Of a stretch of DNA of 64,000 nt, positions 1,920-27,181 are shown one piece after another (position 1 is the first letter of the stretch; each line of letters begins with the position of its first letter). This DNA is from Bacteroidia bacterium (GTDB lineage Bacteria; Bacteroidota; Bacteroidia; AKYH767-A; 2013-40CM-41-45). The notes below the pieces were generated by a model. That model worked only from the letters and a program-made list of their open reading frames with translations. It was not told the origin of the DNA and did no database searches. A program made the position numbers and the translations under genes. The stretch is from NCBI GenBank assembly GCA_038230515.1, contig JBBRND010000015.1, positions 13,694 to 77,693 of the forward strand, read 5' to 3'.

Positions 1920-3308
1920 ATGAAAGCGATCTTAAGAAAACTGGCAAAGAAGGATGTGTACGACAGCATTCCGTACGATGATTTGATACTGAAACAGCGT
2001 TTCGCACTGTTCCGCATCTTCACCTTCACAGGTTTCCTTGCCAGCGTTGCCGTTGCCACACAAATCTTAACTGCATTTGAAGGATCAGGTTCAGGCCTCA
2101 TTGCATACCTTCTCTTTGGATTGGCAGGAGTGATGGTAATCAATTATTTCATGGTGCGCGATTACCTAAAATTACCGATAGCATACATGATTACGTTGAT
2201 GGCTGCATTCCTCATGCTGCATTTTCAATCGTACACTTCAGGTGGAATACGAAACTCAGGAACGATGTATCTTGCTGTGGTGATGTTGTCGGCATTTATG
2301 ATGTTGGGAACAAAGGCAGCGAAATGGTTTACGGCATTGGTGCTTGTTCACTTTGTTTATTTATTCTGCATTACTGAATATACAGATTGGACTTCTTATA
2401 GTTTATTTCAGAATGACGGACATCTGATCAATCAGGACTTTCTTACTACTGCAATTCTTGCCTTCTTCCTTATCGCTGCACAAAGTAATTATCTGCATAG
2501 TGGGAAGAATGTGGTGATCGAGCGCATCACTGAGCAAAAGGATGCACTTGAAATAAGTAACAGACGCTTGCAGGAATATACTACTACACTTGAGAAAACA
2601 AATAAAGAACTCGACAAGTTTGCATCCATTGTATCGCATGATCTGAAAGCTCCACTGCGTGCAATTGGTAACCTTGCTGACTGGATTGAGGAAGATGGTG
2701 GACCAACATTTACTCCTGAAGTACGCACAAACTTCAACATGATTAAGCAACGGATTAAACGGATGGAAGATTTGATTCAGGCGATTCTTGATTACTCAAA
2801 AGCGGATAAGCGCATGGGTGATGAAGTTAAAGTTGACACAAATGAGTTGGTGAAAGAAACTGCTGACTTTATTGGTTTGCCTGCACATGCAAAACTTCAC
2901 ATCGCAGAAAACATGCCTAACATGGTAACTGATAAAACTCGTTTGAGCCAGGTGTTCTCTAACCTTATTGGAAACGGTGTAAAATATAATGACAAGGAAA
3001 TTCCTGAAGTGACAGTATCATCTGAGACGCATGACAATGGTTGGACATTCTCTGTTAAAGATAACGGTCCGGGTATTGATCCGAAGTTTCATGAAAAGGT
3101 TTTCGTGATTTTCCAAACACTTAACCGTAGAGATGATGTGGAGAGCACAGGCGTTGGTCTTGCCATTGTAAAGAAAATTATAGAAGACCAGGGCGGCAGT
3201 ATTTGGATTGAAAGTGAACCGGGACAGGGCGCGGATTTTAAATTCTTTTGGCCTAAAGTGAAAAAGGTAAAAGATTCTGCATTAATCGCAGCTTTGCTTA
3301 TCGTGTAA
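1920..3308 (+). CDS. Membrane-anchored sensor histidine kinase.
   Basis: The N-terminus is hydrophobic with multiple TM segments. It has an H-box (FASIVSHDLKAPLRAI) and an HATPase region (GNGVKYN, DNGPGID, GVGLAIVK). Confidence 0.85.
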   Translation: MKAILRKLAKKDVYDSIPYDDLILKQRFALFRIFTFTGFLASVAVATQILTAFEGSGSGLIAYLLFGLAGVMVINYFMVRDYLKLPIAYMITLMAAFLMLHFQSYTSGGIRNSGTMYLAVVMLSAFMMLGTKAAKWFTALVLVHFVYLFCITEYTDWTSYSLFQNDGHLINQDFLTTAILAFFLIAAQSNYLHSGKNVVIERITEQKDALEISNRRLQEYTTTLEKTNKELDKFASIVSHDLKAPLRAIGNLADWIEEDGGPTFTPEVRTNFNMIKQRIKRMEDLIQAILDYSKADKRMGDEVKVDTNELVKETADFIGLPAHAKLHIAENMPNMVTDKTRLSQVFSNLIGNGVKYNDKEIPEVTVSSETHDNGWTFSVKDNGPGIDPKFHEKVFVIFQTLNRRDDVESTGVGLAIVKKIIEDQGGSIWIESEPGQGADFKFFWPKVKKVKDSALIAALLIV

Positions 3309-3380
3309 GAAACTGACCATAATTGCATAAACTTAGCATTCGATCTTTAGTAAAATTGTATAAATAAAAACAGATCGAAA

Positions 3381-3719
3381 ATGTTTACCGGAAAAAATAT
3401 CACTACGTCAGAGCGTGCACCGCTTACCATCGTTCAAAATTCTCACACGAAAAACATTGAACGCGAAGTGGACAGTTATGTAAAAAGCATTCGCGTGCTT
3501 ATTGCAAAGCTTACCCCGACAGAACGTCAGAAGTATTACAATGGCTTGCTTGCCTTCATCCTGAACGAACAGATTGACATGAACAGCACTGCCAATGAAA
3601 AGAAAATTGATGAAAGCGATTTCACAAAACTTTCTGCGCATGAGTTAGGTTTGCTCGAAGAACTGTCCATGCAGATGCAGAAACTTTATCGAACCATCGG
3701 TCACGATACAGAATCGTAA
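3381..3719 (+). CDS. Hypothetical protein.
   Basis: A 112-aa ORF in an intergenic context. No recognisable motif. Confidence 0.35.
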   Translation: MFTGKNITTSERAPLTIVQNSHTKNIEREVDSYVKSIRVLIAKLTPTERQKYYNGLLAFILNEQIDMNSTANEKKIDESDFTKLSAHELGLLEELSMQMQKLYRTIGHDTES

Positions 3720-19814: not shown

Positions 19815-20798
19815 CTACGATTTTTTGTTCTTCAAATAAATTCGCTGTCCCGGTCTTACTTCGGCATTTTCAGAAAGATTGTTCCACTTTAAAAGCAACC
19901 GTAGTTTTACTCCTTGTTCCTGCGCTACATCATGCAGCGTTTGTCCTTGCTTAAGAGTGTAAAATGTGCGGTCGCCTGTTCTTTTCTTTGGCTTCAGATA
20001 AATTTTTTCTCCTTCATCAAGAGGAGTGCTCTTGCTGACTTCGTTGTATTTTAAGATTTGCCATTCTCCCATTTCAAATTCATCGGCAATGGTGCGGTAG
20101 TTGTCGCCATCTTTGGCTATTACGTAAGGGGTTTCATTCGTATAAAAAACCTGGTGACCTCCGAATGGATTAATCACATCCGTAGTGGGAACAAAAATGC
20201 GCTCCGTAGTTTTCCGCACAGGGGGTTCCGGCTTTGCTGATGCTACGGGTTCATATATTTCTTTCGGCAGTTCTCCACCGCGATCCAACTCGTACAGTTT
20301 AAAGTCTTCAATAATTTTTATGATTCGCCCTGCATACTGCGGGTTAGTTGCATAGCCGGCTTTTTTCAATCCATAAGCCCATCCTTTGTAATCGGTAGCG
20401 TCAAGCAGGAACAGTTCTGCATAGCGGGGTCGGGTTCTTAAAAAATTAGAATGATCATCATAGGATTCGAGCGCGCCTTTGTATTTGCGGAAACATTCAT
20501 TGCGCCTGTCGTCATCCTGTACGTAGGTATCCCCGTTCCAGTCAGCACATTTTATTCCGAAGTGATTGTTGGCTTCTATCGCCAGGGGGCTGTTTCCATC
20601 CTGCGATTCGAGGCATGCCTGCGCCATCGTAATGCTTGCGGGTACACCGGTTTTTTTCATATCGCGAACGGCATCGCTTTTATATTTTGCAATGTATTCT
20701 TCGCGAGTCATCTTTCCATCGGCTGCAAATGCAGGGGGCGATGGCAGCAGGTAGGATGCGATTGCAAAAACAAATAAGGTGGGAATGGTGGTTTTCAT
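19815..20798 (-). CDS. Peptidoglycan hydrolase: a glucosaminidase (FlgJ/mannosyl-glycoprotein endo-beta-N-acetylglucosaminidase-like) domain plus C-terminal LysM repeats.
   Basis: Has a signal peptide and the family motif ITMAQACLESQDGNSPLAIEANNHFGIK. There are two C-terminal LysM-like segments (YTLKQGQTLHDVAQEQGV..., RVKRGDTLWSI-type). Confidence 0.7.
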   Translation of the reverse strand: MKTTIPTLFVFAIASYLLPSPPAFAADGKMTREEYIAKYKSDAVRDMKKTGVPASITMAQACLESQDGNSPLAIEANNHFGIKCADWNGDTYVQDDDRRNECFRKYKGALESYDDHSNFLRTRPRYAELFLLDATDYKGWAYGLKKAGYATNPQYAGRIIKIIEDFKLYELDRGGELPKEIYEPVASAKPEPPVRKTTERIFVPTTDVINPFGGHQVFYTNETPYVIAKDGDNYRTIADEFEMGEWQILKYNEVSKSTPLDEGEKIYLKPKKRTGDRTFYTLKQGQTLHDVAQEQGVKLRLLLKWNNLSENAEVRPGQRIYLKNKKS

Positions 20799-21024: not shown

Positions 21025-22029
21025 CTACTTCGAAACTTTTGCCGTTTGCGGCTGACTTTGCGGTGCGGGTATGTTTTCGAAACTTGGCGCGCAGATGCAT
21101 GTTGCAAGTACTGCTTTGCCTTTTTGAAAATTATACGGACCGAAAGTTTTTGATTTTACTCCATTGCCTGATATGGTGATGGTGCGGATTCCCGGAAAGA
21201 ATGCTTTTACTGATACAAATCCGTTTTCATCAGTGATTCCGCTTACGGCTTTGTAACTATTGCCGGTTTCAGGATCAGTGAATGCATCAACGGTAACTTT
21301 TGCATAGATGAATGGTTTGCTCAGTTCGTCTATTACCAGCACGTCTGCACGGGTATGGCGTTTTGCTGCGGTGTCTGTAAGCTCGCGCTGGCTGCGGTAG
21401 CCGATGTAGTATGCAGATTGCGTCTGCATTAATCTTGCTACGAGTCCATCAATTTGATTGCGCACAAGATTCATTGCATCGGTGATGGCTTGTGAATATT
21501 CTGCACCTGTAGATTTGCGTTGCTTAATGGCTTCGGTTGGCAGATTGAGCACACCATTGTATGCAGCCAACTGAGTTTGCCAGTCTGTGATGGTTGCAGC
21601 GGTGATGTTGTAGCTACTTAAAGAAGCAACTACTGCATCGGTTGCGGTGATGGCATTGGCAATGGTTGTTGCCAGTTTAACAAACGCCATGCGCTGGAGT
21701 GAACTCAAATTGAATTTCACTTTTGCGGCAAGCGTAGGGTTTGGCGATGATGGTTGCGTTGCAAAAGCATACACACTTTTCATAATGGTGTAGCTGAAGT
21801 TAGCAAGATCTAACCGCGACTGCCTGCGCAGGTTGGTTATGCCGGTAATAACAGCGTGGTACTGATCAAACAGACTTGTGCAATTACTTTGCTTAGTATT
21901 AAGTAATGCAAATGCTGCCTCGAGTGCTGCAACGCTATTGGTGATTGATACCCTTGAAGGGTCTTGAGAATACGAATTGATTCGCATAATCATTTGTAGC
22001 TGGGCTACTGTGTAATAAGGTATGAACAT
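21025..22029 (-). CDS. Hypothetical protein.
   Basis: A 334-aa ORF with no signal peptide. The C-terminal part is beta-rich. A weak terminator lies downstream. Confidence 0.4.
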   Translation of the reverse strand: MFIPYYTVAQLQMIMRINSYSQDPSRVSITNSVAALEAAFALLNTKQSNCTSLFDQYHAVITGITNLRRQSRLDLANFSYTIMKSVYAFATQPSSPNPTLAAKVKFNLSSLQRMAFVKLATTIANAITATDAVVASLSSYNITAATITDWQTQLAAYNGVLNLPTEAIKQRKSTGAEYSQAITDAMNLVRNQIDGLVARLMQTQSAYYIGYRSQRELTDTAAKRHTRADVLVIDELSKPFIYAKVTVDAFTDPETGNSYKAVSGITDENGFVSVKAFFPGIRTITISGNGVKSKTFGPYNFQKGKAVLATCICAPSFENIPAPQSQPQTAKVSK

Positions 22030-22337
22030 TGTTTTTAAAATTTATATTGTTTAATTAATAGTTGTTACACGAGAAAAAAACCACTGATGTTTAAAGGTTT
22101 TGATGGAAACCTTACAGTTTTTGTGTGGAAGGGGAAGAAAGTGCTGCGAGTTCTCTAACTTAGACTATAAAGAAAAAACTGTTGCGCTTGTTGAATGGCT
22201 GGTCTAGCTGTGCGCACAAGAAATTCTGCGAGAGATGACTGGCTGGCAATGAAACTACCTAAACTCTACAGGAACAAAATTAATTTGTTCAATATTTCGC
22301 TTTTCATACGTTTGCAATTCACTTTAAAACCACTCGT

Positions 22338-23006
22338 ATGAAAAAGCGACTATTATTCTCCGCCACAATTTTCTTAACAGTATGTGCACTCTATGTAAAA
22401 GGGCAAAGCCCGATGGCGGAAACCAATAGTGATGGATCATCTCCCAATAAACAAACCGTTTATCCCGAAGGAGGGTATGATAACTTTGAAGATTTAAACA
22501 GCAAAAAACCATCAGCGAAAGTTAAATACGGAATCAGAGAACGCCCAGACAAGGAAATAGAAAAAATTGGAGGAAACGATTACGATGCAGAGTTCCTGGA
22601 TGAAAAAACCGGAAAATGGCATAGAGAAAGAGAAGTATTTGCAATTTCGGACGGAAAAAAATTATACCTCAACGGCCGGTCGTTCAATCTTCCTATAGGA
22701 TTTATGGAAGTAATTGAGGAAGGATATTACCTTGTTTTTTTATGTTCTACTCCTTCTGCGAGCAGAACAAACGTTTCGGAATTAGGAGCAGTATCAGTTA
22801 ATCAAGACATCGGGCGTGTGCGCAAAAAAATCTATTACTGCCTCGATACTTCTACGGGCAAAGCGAAAATGTTTAATAAGCTGCTTTTAAGACAACTATT
22901 AAACAATCATTCCGATTTAGCCAATCGGTTTGAGAGCGAACCTGAAAATACGAAAATAGAAGTAGAGATGGAATATCTCAGGCTGCTTAATGCTGCAATA
23001 AAATAA
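22338..23006 (+). CDS. Secreted hypothetical protein.
   Basis: Has a signal peptide (MKKRLLFSATIFLTVCALYVKG). Confidence 0.45.
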   Translation: MKKRLLFSATIFLTVCALYVKGQSPMAETNSDGSSPNKQTVYPEGGYDNFEDLNSKKPSAKVKYGIRERPDKEIEKIGGNDYDAEFLDEKTGKWHREREVFAISDGKKLYLNGRSFNLPIGFMEVIEEGYYLVFLCSTPSASRTNVSELGAVSVNQDIGRVRKKIYYCLDTSTGKAKMFNKLLLRQLLNNHSDLANRFESEPENTKIEVEMEYLRLLNAAIK

Positions 23007-23078
23007 ACAACACTAAGAATGGAGGCACCTGACACGAGAAAAAACTACGTGTCAGGAGGTGGGTTCAGGAAATTTTAT

Positions 23079-24020
23079 TTATTTATTTATTGTAGGTTTA
23101 TAATCATAACGAAAAAGAAAAGGTTCCGCATCGACATTCCCTTGTGTAAGCGCTGGCTTTATATTTTCAAATATTGATTGCACAACCTTGAATTGAGATG
23201 TTTCAATTAACCCAAAACCTACTAGCATAGTATATGATCTAATTGATAAACTATCATCCATTTCATTATAGCATGGAGCATCTACATATATAAGACATCC
23301 AATAGTTTTTTCGTTTCGCTTTGCATCCCAACCGGATTTATGCTTCTTAAAGAATTCTTCTGCAAAGAATCGTAATTGAGAATCCAATGACGTATTATTG
23401 GGAGCGCGAAGTGTATAATGATCTTTATTAACCAATTTACTAATTGAAATTGCAACTAGACCATAACCTTTTGCATCAGATGAATATCTTTTGTCTAATT
23501 GGCTGTAAGCTTTAGCAACATTGCTTGAAATCTGCTTTTCGCTGGATGGACGTTTGCACTCTATATAATAATTACCATCTAAAGTTTGATACTCCAAGTC
23601 ACTTTCATTGCCGAAAACAATGTCGTATCCTCCCATTAACAATGTTGCCCCTAAAAATAGTTCAAATCCAATATCACGTGGATTATTTGTTGATTTCAGA
23701 GGATTCTCATCATCAATATTTATTGGGCCATTGATATAAGTCTTTAACCTTCCTATAAGATTTTCTGAAATGTTTGTTTTAGTTAGTCCCGAATAAATGC
23801 TAACAAGTTGATTTATCTCATAAAAAGCCTTCCCGAAATTATTATATTCTTCTGTTTCTTGTAAACTCTTATGTGTTCCGTTTTGAATGGCGGAAATGTA
23901 TCCGGCTAAGTATTTTCTATGATTATGTATTCGTGTATTAGATTCTATTCCCAAAGATTTAAGCATGGCAATAAATGAATCTAAATTAGCCAACTGGACA
24001 TTTAAATTATCAGTATACAT
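23079..24020 (-). CDS. Hypothetical protein with a PD-(D/E)xK nuclease-like core, a candidate restriction endonuclease.
   Basis: Middle region reads DIGFELFLGATLLMGGYDIVFGNESDLEYQTLDGNYYIECKRP, giving E...D...ExK with canonical spacing. It lies 75 bp downstream of the DUF262-HNH gene on the same strand, and the region is AT-rich. Confidence 0.35.
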   Translation of the reverse strand: MYTDNLNVQLANLDSFIAMLKSLGIESNTRIHNHRKYLAGYISAIQNGTHKSLQETEEYNNFGKAFYEINQLVSIYSGLTKTNISENLIGRLKTYINGPINIDDENPLKSTNNPRDIGFELFLGATLLMGGYDIVFGNESDLEYQTLDGNYYIECKRPSSEKQISSNVAKAYSQLDKRYSSDAKGYGLVAISISKLVNKDHYTLRAPNNTSLDSQLRFFAEEFFKKHKSGWDAKRNEKTIGCLIYVDAPCYNEMDDSLSIRSYTMLVGFGLIETSQFKVVQSIFENIKPALTQGNVDAEPFLFRYDYKPTINK

Positions 24021-24095
24021 TGGGACAGATCATTTTTATGAGTGTTATACCTTTATTCAACTCTCCAAAGTATCTTCTGGACTTACAGAAAACTA

Positions 24096-25259
24096 TTACC
24101 GATTTCCTTTTGCCCGATTGTGTGTCTTGCATAACATCTGACAGTTTTTAGAATCAGTAGCGCCACCTTTGCTCCATGCTGCTACATGGTCGGCATCCAT
24201 TTCTACCAGCTTATAAATCTTACCCTTGTTGGCATCATTTCCAAGGGCACAAAGCGGACAGTTTGATTCATCTTTAGTTTCAGCAGTTTTAGTTTGCGTT
24301 GAATAAACAGATTTTTTAGTTGCATCATCAAACACGCGCACTTCCAACAACTTTGTGTCCACCGAGCCGCCAAGGATGAATTCAAAAACACCCTTTCGGT
24401 TTTTGATATACGGATCACCGTAGAGCTTTTTTACTTCGGCTGATACCTTCTTAGGATCATACGCTGTGTTATGATATTCTTCATAGAGGCGACCCCATTC
24501 TAATCCGCACATTTCGCTTTCTACATCTATAAATGTGGTTGAAACCCAATCAATCACTGTGTTGAAATAGGTTTTTAATTCTTTGATGTTTTTGTCTTTG
24601 CGATGGCGGCTCATGTATTCATCAATGCCGCCTTTACTTACCCAGTCTAAGGCGCGTTCTAAAAACGCCTGCCTGTTGGCGCTGCCCTTTATATAGGCGC
24701 TCCATTTTTGGATGTTAGAATTTTGGCTGTTGCTAAACTCCTCTTTGCCGAGTGTGACAAACGGACCGGAATAAATTGAGTTGAGCAATTCCTGATGACT
24801 GAGCGGAACACCTGCAATGTTGATGGTTTTGAACCACTCTTTTATCTCGCTCTCTTCGCCTTCACATTCATAAATGAGAATTTGAGTTTTATAAATCATA
24901 GCCCTTTTATCATCCGCAATACCGTCAAAGTATTGCTCCATGCCGTTTTCATCTTTCACGGCAAATTTGTTGGTGACATAGCGCCCGAAGCTGGTGATGC
25001 GCTGTTGCCCGTCTAACACTTCAAATTTATCGTCACTCACTTTTACGAAATAGATCAAGCCCAAGGGGTAGCCCTTGAGGATAGATTCAATAACCGCTAC
25101 ATCTCTTTTGCCATCGGCATAGATATAGTTACGCTGATACTCCGGCTGTATGGTGAGTTTGCCGCTCAAGCCAAACAGCCCTTTGCCTTCCAATTCATTA
25201 TACTGAAAGCCCTCGCAAATATCTTTGACAGTGATGTTGGTTATTAGTGTTGTTTTCAT
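24096..25259 (-). CDS. DUF262 (ParB/Srx-like, DGQQR motif) N-terminal domain fused to a C-terminal HNH endonuclease. This is the GmrSD/BrxU/SspE-like architecture.
   Basis: The N-terminus has [10 protein letters not shown]...[10 protein letters not shown]. The C-terminus has CPLCALG...[32 protein letters not shown], an HNH His-Me finger with CxxC...C pairs. Its start overlaps the MTase stop by 4 nt. Confidence 0.6.
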
Positions 25260-26356
25260 TTGGTTGTTTTCTTGTGCTTGATAAGTATTCGAGTATAAAG
25301 CCTTTTGTTATTTACATACCCCCTATCTAACTTGCCTTTCCACTTAGAGTTAACTAATTCAGGTAGAAGTCCATCTTTGACATAATAATCGCTTCCAACA
25401 ATTTCAAACTGCTCAGGAGAATATTTATCAAGAAAGCTAATCGGCACACCCATCACACCATCAAAATCACTTGGGATGTATTTGACAAATGGCACTTCAA
25501 TTGCATCATAGTTATCATATTTTTCAAACGGTTTTTTAGTACCAAATTTTATTAGGTCCTCCTTGTTCATTAATGCCAACGGTTGATGACGTCTTCCATG
25601 GTCTATGTTGGTGAACCAACATGAATTTCCAAGTCTTGTATAATCCCCTACATATCCAAGTCGAGCTGCTTTCTGTCGGTCTTTTTCATCAACTTCTGTC
25701 CCTTTTGGAACAGCAAAGACCATGTCGTTAACAAAACCCGTTGCTCCCAACCAAATTTTATTTTCTTTTATCAATGGAAAAACTTCTGTGTAAGTTATAG
25801 CATTTATACTACCAATTATCACAAACTGCTTATTAGCCTCTATAACCCACCCTAAAAAATCACGAAACATTGAGAAAGGCGGATTGGTGATGATGATGTC
25901 GGCTTCATCGCGCAGCTTTTTTATTTCTTTACTATTAAAATCACCATCGCCTTTTAAATAATGCCACTCTAAGTCATCTACATCTATTTTTCCATCACCG
26001 GTGTTGTCGCGGGTGAGGGTGAAAATCTTTCCGTGTTTGGTGGTTTTCTTTTTATCGTATTGCGGAGCGCGTTCTTCAAACAGCGAGGGCTGGTAACCGC
26101 TTTTGTATTTTTTACTTTCGGCAGCATAGCTGGTGCTGATGAGTTTTTTCAAGCCAATGCGCTGAAAGTTTTGAGCAAAAAATTTAGTGAAGTTGCTCCA
26201 CTCCGGGTCATCGCAGGGCAGCAGCACCGTTTTACCACGAAACACTTTAGGGTTGTAATCCAAGTAGGCATTGATCTCTTTTTCTATATCGTGGTATTGC
26301 GTGTAGAACTCATCGTTCTTTGCCTTTTTTGCGTTGGTGAGATTACTGTTTGCCAT
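25256..26356 (-). CDS. N6-adenine DNA methyltransferase, EcoRI-methylase-like.
   Basis: The N-terminus [21 protein letters not shown] resembles the M.EcoRI family start. It has a catalytic IITNPPFS (NPPF) motif and an FxGxG-like AdoMet region. Confidence 0.65.
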
Positions 26357-26505
26357 ATTTGCTCAAAGAGAATTTAAGAACTCTGTGAAATTTTTCAGAA
26401 GCCGAAAGTCCACATTTCTCTTCTCCCCACCAAATTGAATTCTTCTCTTACAGAAACCTTACACTTTTCTTTAAACCTTCTAAATTTTAAAAATTTCTCG
26501 CAATA

Positions 26506-26950
26506 CCGTGAACTTTGCGGACTAAACAGCGAGCAATAATCTCTAAACATTGAACTTTGCGGGCTAAACCGTGAACAAGATTCTCTAAACACTGACCTTT
26601 GCGGGCTAAACCGTGAACAAGATTCTCTAAACACTGACCTTTGCGGGCTAAACCGTGAACAATTTTCTCTAAACACTGACCTTTGCGGGCTAAACCGTGA
26701 ACAAGATTCTCTAAACACTGACCTTTGCGGGCTAAACCGTGAACAAGATTCTCTAAACACTGACCTTTGCGGACTAAACCGTGAACAATTTTCTCTGAAC
26801 ACTGAACTTTGCGGACTAAACCGTGAACAATTTTCTCTGAACACTGAACTTTGCGGGCTAAACGGTGAACAAGTTTCTCTGAACGCTGAACTTTGCAGAC
26901 TAAACGGTGAACAAGTTTCTCTGAACGCTGAACTTTGCAGACTAAACAGC
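26506..26950. repeat. Tandem array B: about 10.5 copies of a 42-bp unit made of two 21-bp half-units (ctaaaccgtgaacaagattct + ctaaacactgacctttgcggg). The sequence drifts progressively along the array.
   Basis: Example units lie at 26564-26584 and 26585-26605. The array occupies almost the whole spacer between the smc stop (27182) and the MTase start (26356). The overlapping 191-aa ORF is a repeat artefact. Confidence 0.9.
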
Positions 26951-27181
26951 AATGTTACTTTTCCAAACATGAAACATGCTGCACATTACATGGTTGTTAT
27001 GAGGGTAGTGCACGAGGTTATAGCAGAAGAATTTTCCGCGTGTTTGCCCTGCTGCAAACTTTACACTTCAGACCTTAAATTAATCAGATTGATTTAAAAC
27101 GCTACCCGAGAAAAGTTCGGAGGCGTTTTATTTGCGTATTTACTTATTCGTAAATTCGAAACGATCAGCTATTCGCACAAC

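Follow-up and report, generated by a model that had tools for sequence, protein, structure and literature searches.

A gene for a predicted adenine methyltransferase (MTase) of the EcoRI family followed by a gene for a DUF262-HNH nuclease makes up a conserved, usually translationally coupled, mobile two-gene cassette, which hundreds of genomes across many phyla contain and which is also found on plasmids and in phages. The best explanation of this arrangement, to which we give a probability of roughly one half, is that the cassette is a restriction-modification (R-M) system in which the nuclease lacks a matching specificity of its own. DUF262 nucleases such as GmrSD, BrxU and SspE are currently seen as sensors of modified DNA; here a nuclease of this kind is the obligate partner of a predicted m6A MTase.

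The window, i.e. the whole stretch of 64,000 nucleotides that was analysed, has three ORFs on the minus strand within positions 23079-26356: the MTase gene (25256..26356, 366 aa), the nuclease gene (24096..25259, 387 aa) and a gene for a 313-aa protein (23079..24020). The stop of the MTase gene and the start of the nuclease gene share 4 nt (ATGA), and a 75-nt gap separates the nuclease stop from the start of the 313-aa gene. The ORFs, the overlap and the spacing had been described in a first-pass annotation of this DNA and are borne out by the ORF coordinates, and the motifs quoted there were all located in the three proteins. The same annotation placed the three genes in an AT-rich patch between a peptidoglycan hydrolase gene and smc, which is correct in part. 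The AT-richness is confined to the 313-aa gene (GC 0.33); the values for the MTase and nuclease genes, 0.36-0.42, are in line with the ~0.40 of the window as a whole. The hydrolase gene (glucosaminidase/LysM, 19815-20798) is separated from the module by two further genes, one a 334-aa ORF and the other of the DUF6563 type. The intergenic region between smc and the MTase gene, just upstream of the cassette, contains a 42-bp tandem repeat of 10.5 copies (26509..26947, no strand assigned; TRF score 640, 94% matches). The repeat has a single occurrence in the window and was not found at related loci in a DNA comparison; the repetitive ORF at 26395-26970 is spurious because it is produced by this repeat. 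A search for direct or inverted repeats flanking the island, which would be a transposon-like mark, gave none that was convincing, and a scan for sigma-70 promoters gave matches at chance level only.

The first gene of the cassette is predicted to encode an N6-adenine DNA MTase of the EcoRI_methylase family. The match to Pfam PF13651 (2e-124; 415.8 bits against a cut-off of 26.4) extends over aa 5-362 of 366 and confirms the family call made at first pass, and the PADLOC profile MTase_II matches at 1.4e-94. KNDEFYTQ is found at aa 13-20 and motif IV, NPPF, at aa 158-161; in an alignment of MTases including M.EcoRI, N158, P160 and F161 are invariant and P159 nearly so. Sequence and profile searches of the PDB gave no match for the MTase, and no solved structure of the family was detectable. 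The cassette resembles the EcoRI system in having an MTase of the same family with the same motif, which shares 41-45% identity with the M.EcoRI encoded on E. coli plasmids. It differs in the partner, which is a DUF262-HNH protein where EcoRI has the PD-(D/E)xK enzyme R.EcoRI, and in the gene order, which is M then R with an overlap in the cassette and R then M in EcoRI. The first-pass annotation had considered that the MTase might be widespread without these neighbours. This is partly true of the EcoRI_methylase family overall, in which M.EcoRI is paired with R.EcoRI and other members look orphan, but not of the sub-clade found here.

The 387-aa nuclease has two domains, both proposed earlier from the letters and now supported by Pfam profiles. 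The N-terminal DUF262/GmrSD_N domain (24771..25154, minus strand; 1.5e-21, aa 36-163) is ParB/Srx-like and has a ten-residue motif at aa 38-47 containing QR (aa 42-43), followed by DGQQR at aa 83-87. The C-terminal domain is an HNH His-Me finger (24099..24260, minus strand; PF01844, 1e-6, aa 349-387) with a CxxC...CxxxC zinc-finger signature, in which we find CPLC at 334-337, DHVAAW at 357-362, and the residues C334, C337, C373, C377, D357-H358, N372 and H380-N381. PF01844 HNH and PF14279 HNH_5 are the only Pfam matches at this end of the protein, no match to DUF1524 being reported at E up to 0.1, and the Pfam and PADLOC profiles revealed no helicase domain, only DUF262 and HNH. The nuclease has more than 8000 homologues. 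Across homologues of 38% to 89% identity the residues P39, Q42, R43, D83-R87, C334, D357-H358, N372, C377 and N381 are invariant, and all four cysteines are invariant or near-invariant. The invariant QR and DGQQR point to a retained nucleotide pocket, and the nuclease may use NTP. Weak profile matches were found between the DUF262 stretch and the BrxU structure 7P9K, and between the HNH part and the Gme HNH structure 4H9D and McrA 6GHC; an AlphaFold model of the nuclease, made from a shallow alignment, had a pLDDT of 52 and is too poor for a structural argument on a DNA-reading domain. A match to the NCBIfam IscB model (E 0.015) scored 14.5 bits where the cut-off is 175 and was set aside, as it reflects only the common HNH motif. 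A reading of the HNH protein as a homing endonuclease was likewise rejected, as conserved flanks and a target gene are absent and the linkage to the MTase is obligate.

The cassette was found in at least 586 of the ~186,000 species genomes scanned, and the carriers include bacteria, CPR lineages, archaea, plasmids (resistance plasmids among them) and phages. The MTase gene lies directly upstream of the nuclease gene in nearly all of 80 genome loci, mostly with a gap of -4 to +4 nt, and the two are paired in 35 of 37 viral loci (IMG/VR). In the relatives, too, the two genes are usually coupled in translation. The first-pass annotation stated that DUF262/His-Me nucleases do not share a transcript with a methyltransferase, which is incorrect for this family. 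Plasmids from Moraxella, Enterococcus and Pediococcus carry such pairs, as does the Flavobacterium phage laban6-1, and plasmid pairs are still found where nuclease identity is as low as 36-40%. Homology at the DNA level with related loci ends exactly at the MTase start and the nuclease stop, and the limits of the cassette are those of the two ORFs; for this pair the suggestion of a restriction/defence-type module of mobile origin has gained support. At some loci a Bro-N, RhuM or DUF2130 gene lies between the two cassette genes. Insertions of such genes between M and R also occur in Type I loci. Intact nuclease genes with no MTase nearby were found at four loci (L120, L129, L025 and L077), which suggests that the nuclease alone is tolerated; an MTase encoded at another place in the genome could, however, protect such copies.

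The MTase has a mosaic structure: set into a conserved core are two recombining hypervariable modules. These are V1 (25616..25756, minus strand, aa ~201-247) and V2 (25289..25396, minus strand, aa ~321-356), both putative target-recognition modules. Identity to the window MTase falls to 0.11-0.38 in V1, against 0.7-0.9 in the surrounding core. V1 comes in 11 discrete types, with an identity of 80% within and 25% between types, and V2 in 23 discrete types, with 72% and 23%, respectively; core identity across the V1/V2 types is 68%. The modules shuffle freely, giving 43 combinations in 61 cassettes. One V1 type is shared with M.EcoRI, whose corresponding segment is 60-65% identical to it; this is a further likeness to the EcoRI system, but the variable segments of the cassette MTases are longer than those of EcoRI and are shuffled. 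Since conservation within a type at least equals that of the core, V1 and V2 appear to be functional recognition modules and not drifting loops, and they would set the target specificity.

The nuclease, on the other hand, is ~79% identical throughout and does not co-vary with the V1/V2 types, in a sample of 80 genome loci which are the best nuclease matches and in which nuclease diversity is therefore narrowed. Nucleases from cassettes that agree in both modules are 80.1% identical and those from cassettes that agree in neither 79.1%, and the maximum AMI between nuclease columns and module type is 0.14, to be compared with a 95th percentile of 0.13-0.15 for the permutation null. At larger distances the nuclease and the MTase have diverged about equally. 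As the nuclease is constant and shows no co-variation with V1 and V2, it is most likely without a matching sequence specificity of its own.

A classical Type IIP/IIS pair would consist of a nuclease which is itself sequence-specific and an MTase which independently protects the same sequence; the variable segments of the MTase would then be specificity-neutral surface loops, or the nucleases would be subtly co-adapted. The pair is in fact already captured by the PADLOC Type II R-M profiles MTase_II and REase_II, which match full length (REase_II PDLC03418 at 2.3e-84 for the nuclease). The MTase and the REase-type protein are encoded by separate adjacent genes, the MTase family includes M.EcoRI, which works in this way with R.EcoRI, and the tight M-R linkage and the occurrence on small plasmids are in keeping with an addictive module of Type II. 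As the nuclease is classed with the Type II REases in PADLOC, a characterised and independently specific relative may exist in REBASE. The origin of the REase_II profile is not stated in the PADLOC papers, and literature searches found no published biochemical characterisation of, or paper on, the MTase/DUF262-HNH family. The combination of a mosaic MTase and a constant nuclease argues against such a pair: nucleases ~80% identical to each other stand beside MTases with dozens of combinations of unrelated modules, no nuclease position tracks the module type, and the conservation of the modules within types is that of recognition modules. In addition, intact nuclease copies exist without an MTase, and the nuclease has an invariant NTP-pocket-type motif, which classical Type II enzymes are not known to have. 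We regard a classical Type II pair as rather unlikely.

In the R-M cassette with a nuclease of no matching specificity, the EcoRI-family MTase would mark the host DNA by m6A methylation, and the translationally coupled protein, with its NTP-binding domain of the ParB/Srx type and its HNH domain, would be the nuclease arm directed against unmarked DNA. The two recombining modules of the MTase would be the target-recognition elements. The probable option is that the MTase acts as the specificity subunit for the nuclease, following the logic of Type I, Type III and Type IIG systems with a mod-then-res order; alternatively, the DUF262 domain of the nuclease might read the methylation state generically, as SspE reads phosphorothioate. 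The HNH domain would cut or nick under either option. Judged from the sequences, the nuclease is likely to depend on the MTase or on methylation, and the cassette presumably serves in defence.

The likeness to Type III systems (and to Type I and IIG) lies in the mod-then-res order, the tight coupling, the variable MTase modules and the conserved nuclease, and it is an organisational analogy only. Movement of domains of this kind in H. pylori MTases is described in an earlier study (PMC3983042). Unlike Type III systems the cassette has no SF2 helicase/translocase, and the candidate NTP-binding part is the ParB/Srx-type DUF262 domain. Its nuclease is an HNH protein, where a Res subunit has an SF2 helicase/ATPase together with PD-(D/E)xK; the MTase is of the EcoRI type and not a Type III Mod, and an HsdS-like subunit as in Type I is absent. 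A further and more tentative proposal, about which some doubt is in order, is that these cassettes form a distinct and very widespread R-M class, in which a constant NTP-switch nuclease of the ParB/Srx type, lacking any specificity, is targeted or licensed by an MTase with freely recombining modules. Such a helicase-free logic of the Type III kind would account for one nuclease serving dozens of specificities in bacteria, CPR lineages, archaea, plasmids and phages. If the nuclease borrows its specificity from the modular MTase, the cassette would be a new architectural solution for R-M and a natural system in which one nuclease could be re-targeted by swaps of MTase modules, and annotation pipelines which label it as ordinary "Type II" may conceal another mechanism. 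Should it instead prove to be an ordinary Type II pair, the finding would be routine.

Another explanation sees in the DUF262-HNH protein a Type IV-like nuclease which, as GmrSD and BrxU do, depends on modification, and ascribes another purpose to the MTase; it might shield the DNA of the element itself from host restriction, or it might silence or counteract the nuclease. The characterised DUF262-His-Me enzymes GmrSD, BrxU and SspE sense modified DNA, and the cassette nuclease shares with them the N-terminal DUF262 domain with the invariant QR and DGQQR followed by a C-terminal His-Me nuclease; SspE, moreover, likewise functions next to a modification module. Among the carriers of the pair are phages and plasmids, on which orphan MTases are common. 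At variance with this explanation is the near-obligate, coupled M-then-R operon, which is kept down to 36% identity and is unexpected for a Type IV enzyme. The cassette nuclease also differs from GmrSD, BrxU and SspE in being shorter (387 aa), in being obligately linked to an MTase instead of encoded by a stand-alone gene, and in having a classical zinc-finger HNH (PF01844) in place of a DUF1524-type domain, for which Pfam reported no match. An m6A-dependent nuclease would be toxic to its own cell if it shared its sites with the m6A MTase next to it. The PADLOC models for Type IV-like DUF262 proteins (HEC-05, HEC-06 and Orf5) match the nuclease at 1e-5 or weaker, against 2e-84 for REase_II. 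A Type IV-like function of the nuclease is considered improbable.

The DUF262 part of the nuclease also matches the PADLOC models for NsnA of Menshen (1.4e-26) and for PD-T4-2_A (6e-13). The paper on Menshen puts forward the possibility that ParB-DUF262 domains located beside methylases target non-modified DNA (PMC12065111). The likeness to Menshen and PD-T4-2 is restricted to the DUF262 domain; NsnB and NsnC are absent, and the architecture and the partner genes differ.

The 313-aa protein is a neighbour which we place outside the cassette. It consists of an N-terminal helical domain and a C-terminal restriction-endonuclease-like alpha/beta core with the PD-(D/E)xK fold. The fold is assigned with confidence, in agreement with the earlier PD-(D/E)xK-like call, and makes the protein a putative nuclease. 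The core is E120/D141/E154-x-K156, of which E120, D141 and K156 are shared by all homologues and E154 by 60 of 61. The first-pass annotation had built this core from GFELF (118-122), GYDIVF (131-136) and YIECK (152-156). The E and the ExK stand, but the acidic D is D141 in ESDLEY, which is present in 61/61 homologues; the D of GYDIVF is retained in only 14/61. The closest PD-(D/E)xK comparison is with NucC, CdiA-CT and Type II REases; the 313-aa protein differs by its extra helical domain of ~110 aa and in having no cognate MTase in the contexts seen. Pfam, PADLOC, NCBIfam and PHROGs gave no sequence-level family match for it. Its relatives number roughly 1000.

The three genes could together be one system, the PD-(D/E)xK protein being a second effector or a specificity partner of the pair. 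Its gene follows closely on the same strand, a strong terminator was not seen in the 75 nt between it and the nuclease gene, and the protein combines the restriction-endonuclease-like fold with an intact catalytic-type motif. However, tblastn found the protein at none of ~130 other nuclease-carrying loci, and beyond the nuclease stop codon related loci are no longer homologous. The slot downstream of the nuclease gene is occupied by 62 different gene clusters in 68 loci, and the GC content of the 313-aa gene departs from the ~0.40 of its surroundings. Relatives of the protein occur without the pair, beside an HsdS/nSTAND gene, a phage capsid gene and an SNF2/DUF1156 cluster. We find a system of three genes very improbable, and the inclusion of the 313-aa gene in the module is not upheld. 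A search for relatives on plasmids gave no match, and a word-based profile search for the family gave 10 members. The protein is probably a separately acquired, independent nuclease (putative) of a defence island.

The first-pass annotation described three minus-strand reading frames in 23079-26356, and the ORF calls agree with it in number and coordinates; every motif which it quoted is found, and its domain calls for the first two proteins are borne out in profile searches. The MTase (366 aa, 25256-26356) belongs to the EcoRI methylase family and matches EcoRI_methylase (PF13651) over its full length at 2e-124. The nuclease (387 aa, 24096-25259) carries a GmrSD_N/DUF262 domain (1.5e-21, aa 36-163) and an HNH domain (1e-6, aa 349-387), and its start shares an ATGA overlap with the MTase stop. 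The third ORF (313 aa, 23079-24020), spaced 75 nt from the nuclease gene, has no profile match. In the nuclease, the QR and DGQQR motifs (a ParB/Srx-type pocket) are invariant in proteins spanning 38% to 89% identity, as are the HNH catalytic and zinc-finger residues, which shows that both nuclease domains are under constraint. The nuclease presumably uses NTP; its AlphaFold model has low confidence (pLDDT 52). The NCBI annotation pipeline labels its relatives ‘DUF262 domain-containing protein’ and nothing further, and our literature searches did not find a paper characterising the MTase/DUF262-HNH family, which apparently is uncharacterised.

The cassette of two genes is real and extremely widespread, and existing profiles detect it. 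More than 8000 nuclease homologues are found in the protein collection, and at least 586 nuclease loci were confirmed in the scan of species genomes. The best 80 of these loci have nuclease identities of 78-84% and come from Bacteroidota, Chloroflexota, many CPR/Patescibacteria lineages, Proteobacteria, Verrucomicrobia, Planctomycetes and one Pacearchaeota MAG. The nuclease is also present on 97 plasmids (among them a 9-kb Moraxella plasmid, optrA/erm(A) plasmids of Enterococcus faecium, small Pediococcus and Lactobacillus plasmids and actinobacterial plasmids), in the Flavobacterium phage laban6-1 and on 42 IMG/VR contigs. In nearly all loci with sufficient flank an EcoRI-family MTase lies directly 5' of the nuclease on the same strand, typically with a gap of -4, -1, 0 or +1 nt; this arrangement is seen in 35 of 37 viral loci, and the pairing is kept in plasmid relatives of only 36-40% identity. 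Other loci are homologous to the window at the DNA level only from the MTase start codon to the nuclease stop codon, and the unit is therefore exactly two genes.

An alignment of 61 cassettes (the window and 60 loci) shows that the MTase has a conserved core (aa 1-200 and 248-320) and that identity collapses in two segments, V1 (about aa 201-247) and V2 (about aa 321-356). These are not noisy loops but are sorted into discrete types: delimited at 50% single linkage, there are 11 types of V1 and 23 of V2. Identity within and between types is 80% and 25% for V1 and 72% and 23% for V2, while the core in the same pairs is about 70-72% and about 68% identical. V1 and V2 types are freely combined, giving 43 combinations in the 61 cassettes, and a single V2 type is paired with at least seven V1 types. 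By analogy this pattern would be the signature of exchangeable target-recognition modules of the kind reported from Type I, III and IIG methylases (PMC3983042). V1 and V2 probably set the specificity; searches of the PDB gave no structure of the MTase family. E. coli plasmids yielded M.EcoRI itself, adjoining R.EcoRI; one copy, at 2718-3698 of the E. coli plasmid locus L094, was compared with the loci L076, L061, L084 and L080. The stretch of M.EcoRI that follows motif VIII (GFIVPEHYELYGTEARIDSNGNRIISPNNCLW) shares 60-65% identity with one V1 type of the cassettes, against an overall identity of only 44-54%, which suggests an exchange of modules between EcoRI-type and DUF262-linked systems.

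The nuclease is 80.1% identical where cassettes share both modules and 79.1% where they share neither, although it should be noted that nuclease similarity was the criterion by which the 80 genome loci were picked, so that the diversity of the nuclease is limited. No association beyond the permutation null was found between nuclease alignment columns and module type; MTase core columns beside V1 show the expected linkage (AMI up to 0.45). In the viral set, which is less biased, the divergence of the nuclease at larger distances is about the same as that of the MTase. From these comparisons an essentially constant nuclease appears to serve dozens of module combinations. The nuclease of a classical Type IIP system must itself recognise the site of the methylase, and nucleases which are 80% identical would be expected to have partner methylases of a single specificity. 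A defence-annotation pipeline would report a plain Type II pair here, since the methylase matches the PADLOC model MTase_II (1.4e-94) and the DUF262-HNH protein matches REase_II (PDLC03418) end to end (2.3e-84), against 1e-5 or weaker for the PADLOC DUF262 Type IV-like models; with one nuclease for so many modules we consider such a pair rather unlikely.

We prefer to regard the pair as an R-M cassette in which the nuclease lacks an independent matching specificity. The probability of this is put at about 0.5 because the sample was selected by the nuclease, the role of V1 and V2 is putative, and REBASE may include a characterised relative that has a specificity of its own. The most economical account of the constant nuclease is methylase dependence or sequence-independent sensing of methylation. 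In the first form the nuclease would rely on the methylase for its choice of target following the logic of Type I, III and IIG systems, which is in keeping with the mod-then-res order and the translational coupling; in organisation the cassette is similar to Type III systems but has no helicase. In the second form the DUF262 domain would sense the methylation status independently of sequence, much as SspE senses phosphorothioate. The DUF262 domain is common to the nuclease and GmrSD, BrxU and SspE, and the nuclease could be imagined as Type IV-like, with the MTase as an accessory; however, a DUF1524-type nuclease domain and a stand-alone gene, both features of that family, are missing here, and we find this alternative improbable. 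The modular methylase with a constant nuclease sets the cassette apart as a variant.

Some loci depart from the usual arrangement. An intact nuclease gene has no family MTase within 3-4 kb in L025 and L077, and in two IMG/VR contigs of a gut mobile element (L120 and L129) a repressor-like gene replaces the MTase region; in L120 this is, by eye, an S24/LexA-type repressor-like ORF where the near-identical element L125 has the MTase. Such copies fit a nuclease which is harmless alone, or the MTase may be elsewhere in the genome. Variovorax sp. SRS16 plasmid 2 (L091, 1267-5104) has two tandem EcoRI-family MTases followed by one DUF262-HNH gene. A minority of loci (L022, L025, L032, L053, L062, L065, L067, L078, L079, L082, L125) have genes between MTase and nuclease: Bro-N-like, RhuM, DUF2130, an AAA-type ATPase-like ORF (by eye) and a D12 MTase with a ParB-like gene. 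Most inserts stop within a few nt of the nuclease start, so that coupling is kept. On a small Enterococcus dispar plasmid (L093, NZ_CP116586.1) the linezolid/phenicol resistance gene optrA lies between MTase and nuclease, and on large E. faecium plasmids (L002, NZ_CP142416.1) it lies with erm(A) a few kb from the cassette, which may help to maintain these resistance plasmids.

The 313-aa protein was originally included in a three-gene non-canonical module; the MTase/nuclease part of that proposal stands, but the third gene has no part in the cassette. The protein had been guessed to be PD-(D/E)xK-like, and conserved residues and a confident AlphaFold model (pLDDT 92) bear this out, although the aspartate that is conserved is D141 of ESDLEY rather than the D of GYDIVF. 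An exhaustive HMMER search gave a family of about 1040 cluster representatives of roughly 300 aa each, in which R115, E120, D141, K156, R157 and Q174 do not vary and 60 of 61 homologues have E154. The protein has no match in Pfam, PADLOC, NCBIfam, PHROGs or PDB sequences, and tblastn found none at the other nuclease loci. Its sole close relative (47% identity) and the distant ones lie beside an HTH gene, a phage capsid gene, a Type I HsdS gene with an nSTAND NTPase (L087, 3468-6829) and a SNF2/NOV_C helicase with a DUF1156 methylase-like gene (L088, 3663-10934); the last two contexts suggest that this unnamed family is a defence-island component. The slot directly downstream of the nuclease holds 62 gene clusters in 68 loci, and those which can be identified are of the defence-island type (PDDEXK_1, YhcG/DUF1016, RelA_SpoT, Hypoth_Ymh, Trypsin_2, DUF2130). 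A true three-gene system, in which this protein would act with the cassette, is on these grounds very unlikely in spite of the 75-nt spacing. We read the gene as an independent, uncharacterised nuclease-fold gene which by chance occupies the variable slot. The AT-rich patch reported for the three genes holds for this one (GC 0.33) but not for the cassette, which is like the window at about 0.40.

The module had been placed between a peptidoglycan hydrolase gene and smc. It does not abut the former, as two genes in 21025-23006 separate the module from the glucosaminidase/LysM gene: a 334-aa ORF which has no more than weak CarboxypepD_reg-like matches, and a gene for a DUF6563 protein (22338-23006, 4.7e-22). 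A 42-bp tandem repeat (26509-26947; 10.5 copies with 94% matches) fills the intergenic region between smc and the MTase gene and creates a spurious repetitive ORF of 191 aa (26395-26970); it has no second copy in the window and does not occur upstream of the cassette at other loci. Between the convergent 313-aa and DUF6563 genes a 9-bp inverted repeat (CCTGACACG ... CGTGTCAGG, 23028-23056), uncalled by the scan because its 11-nt loop exceeds 8 nt, may be a bidirectional terminator.
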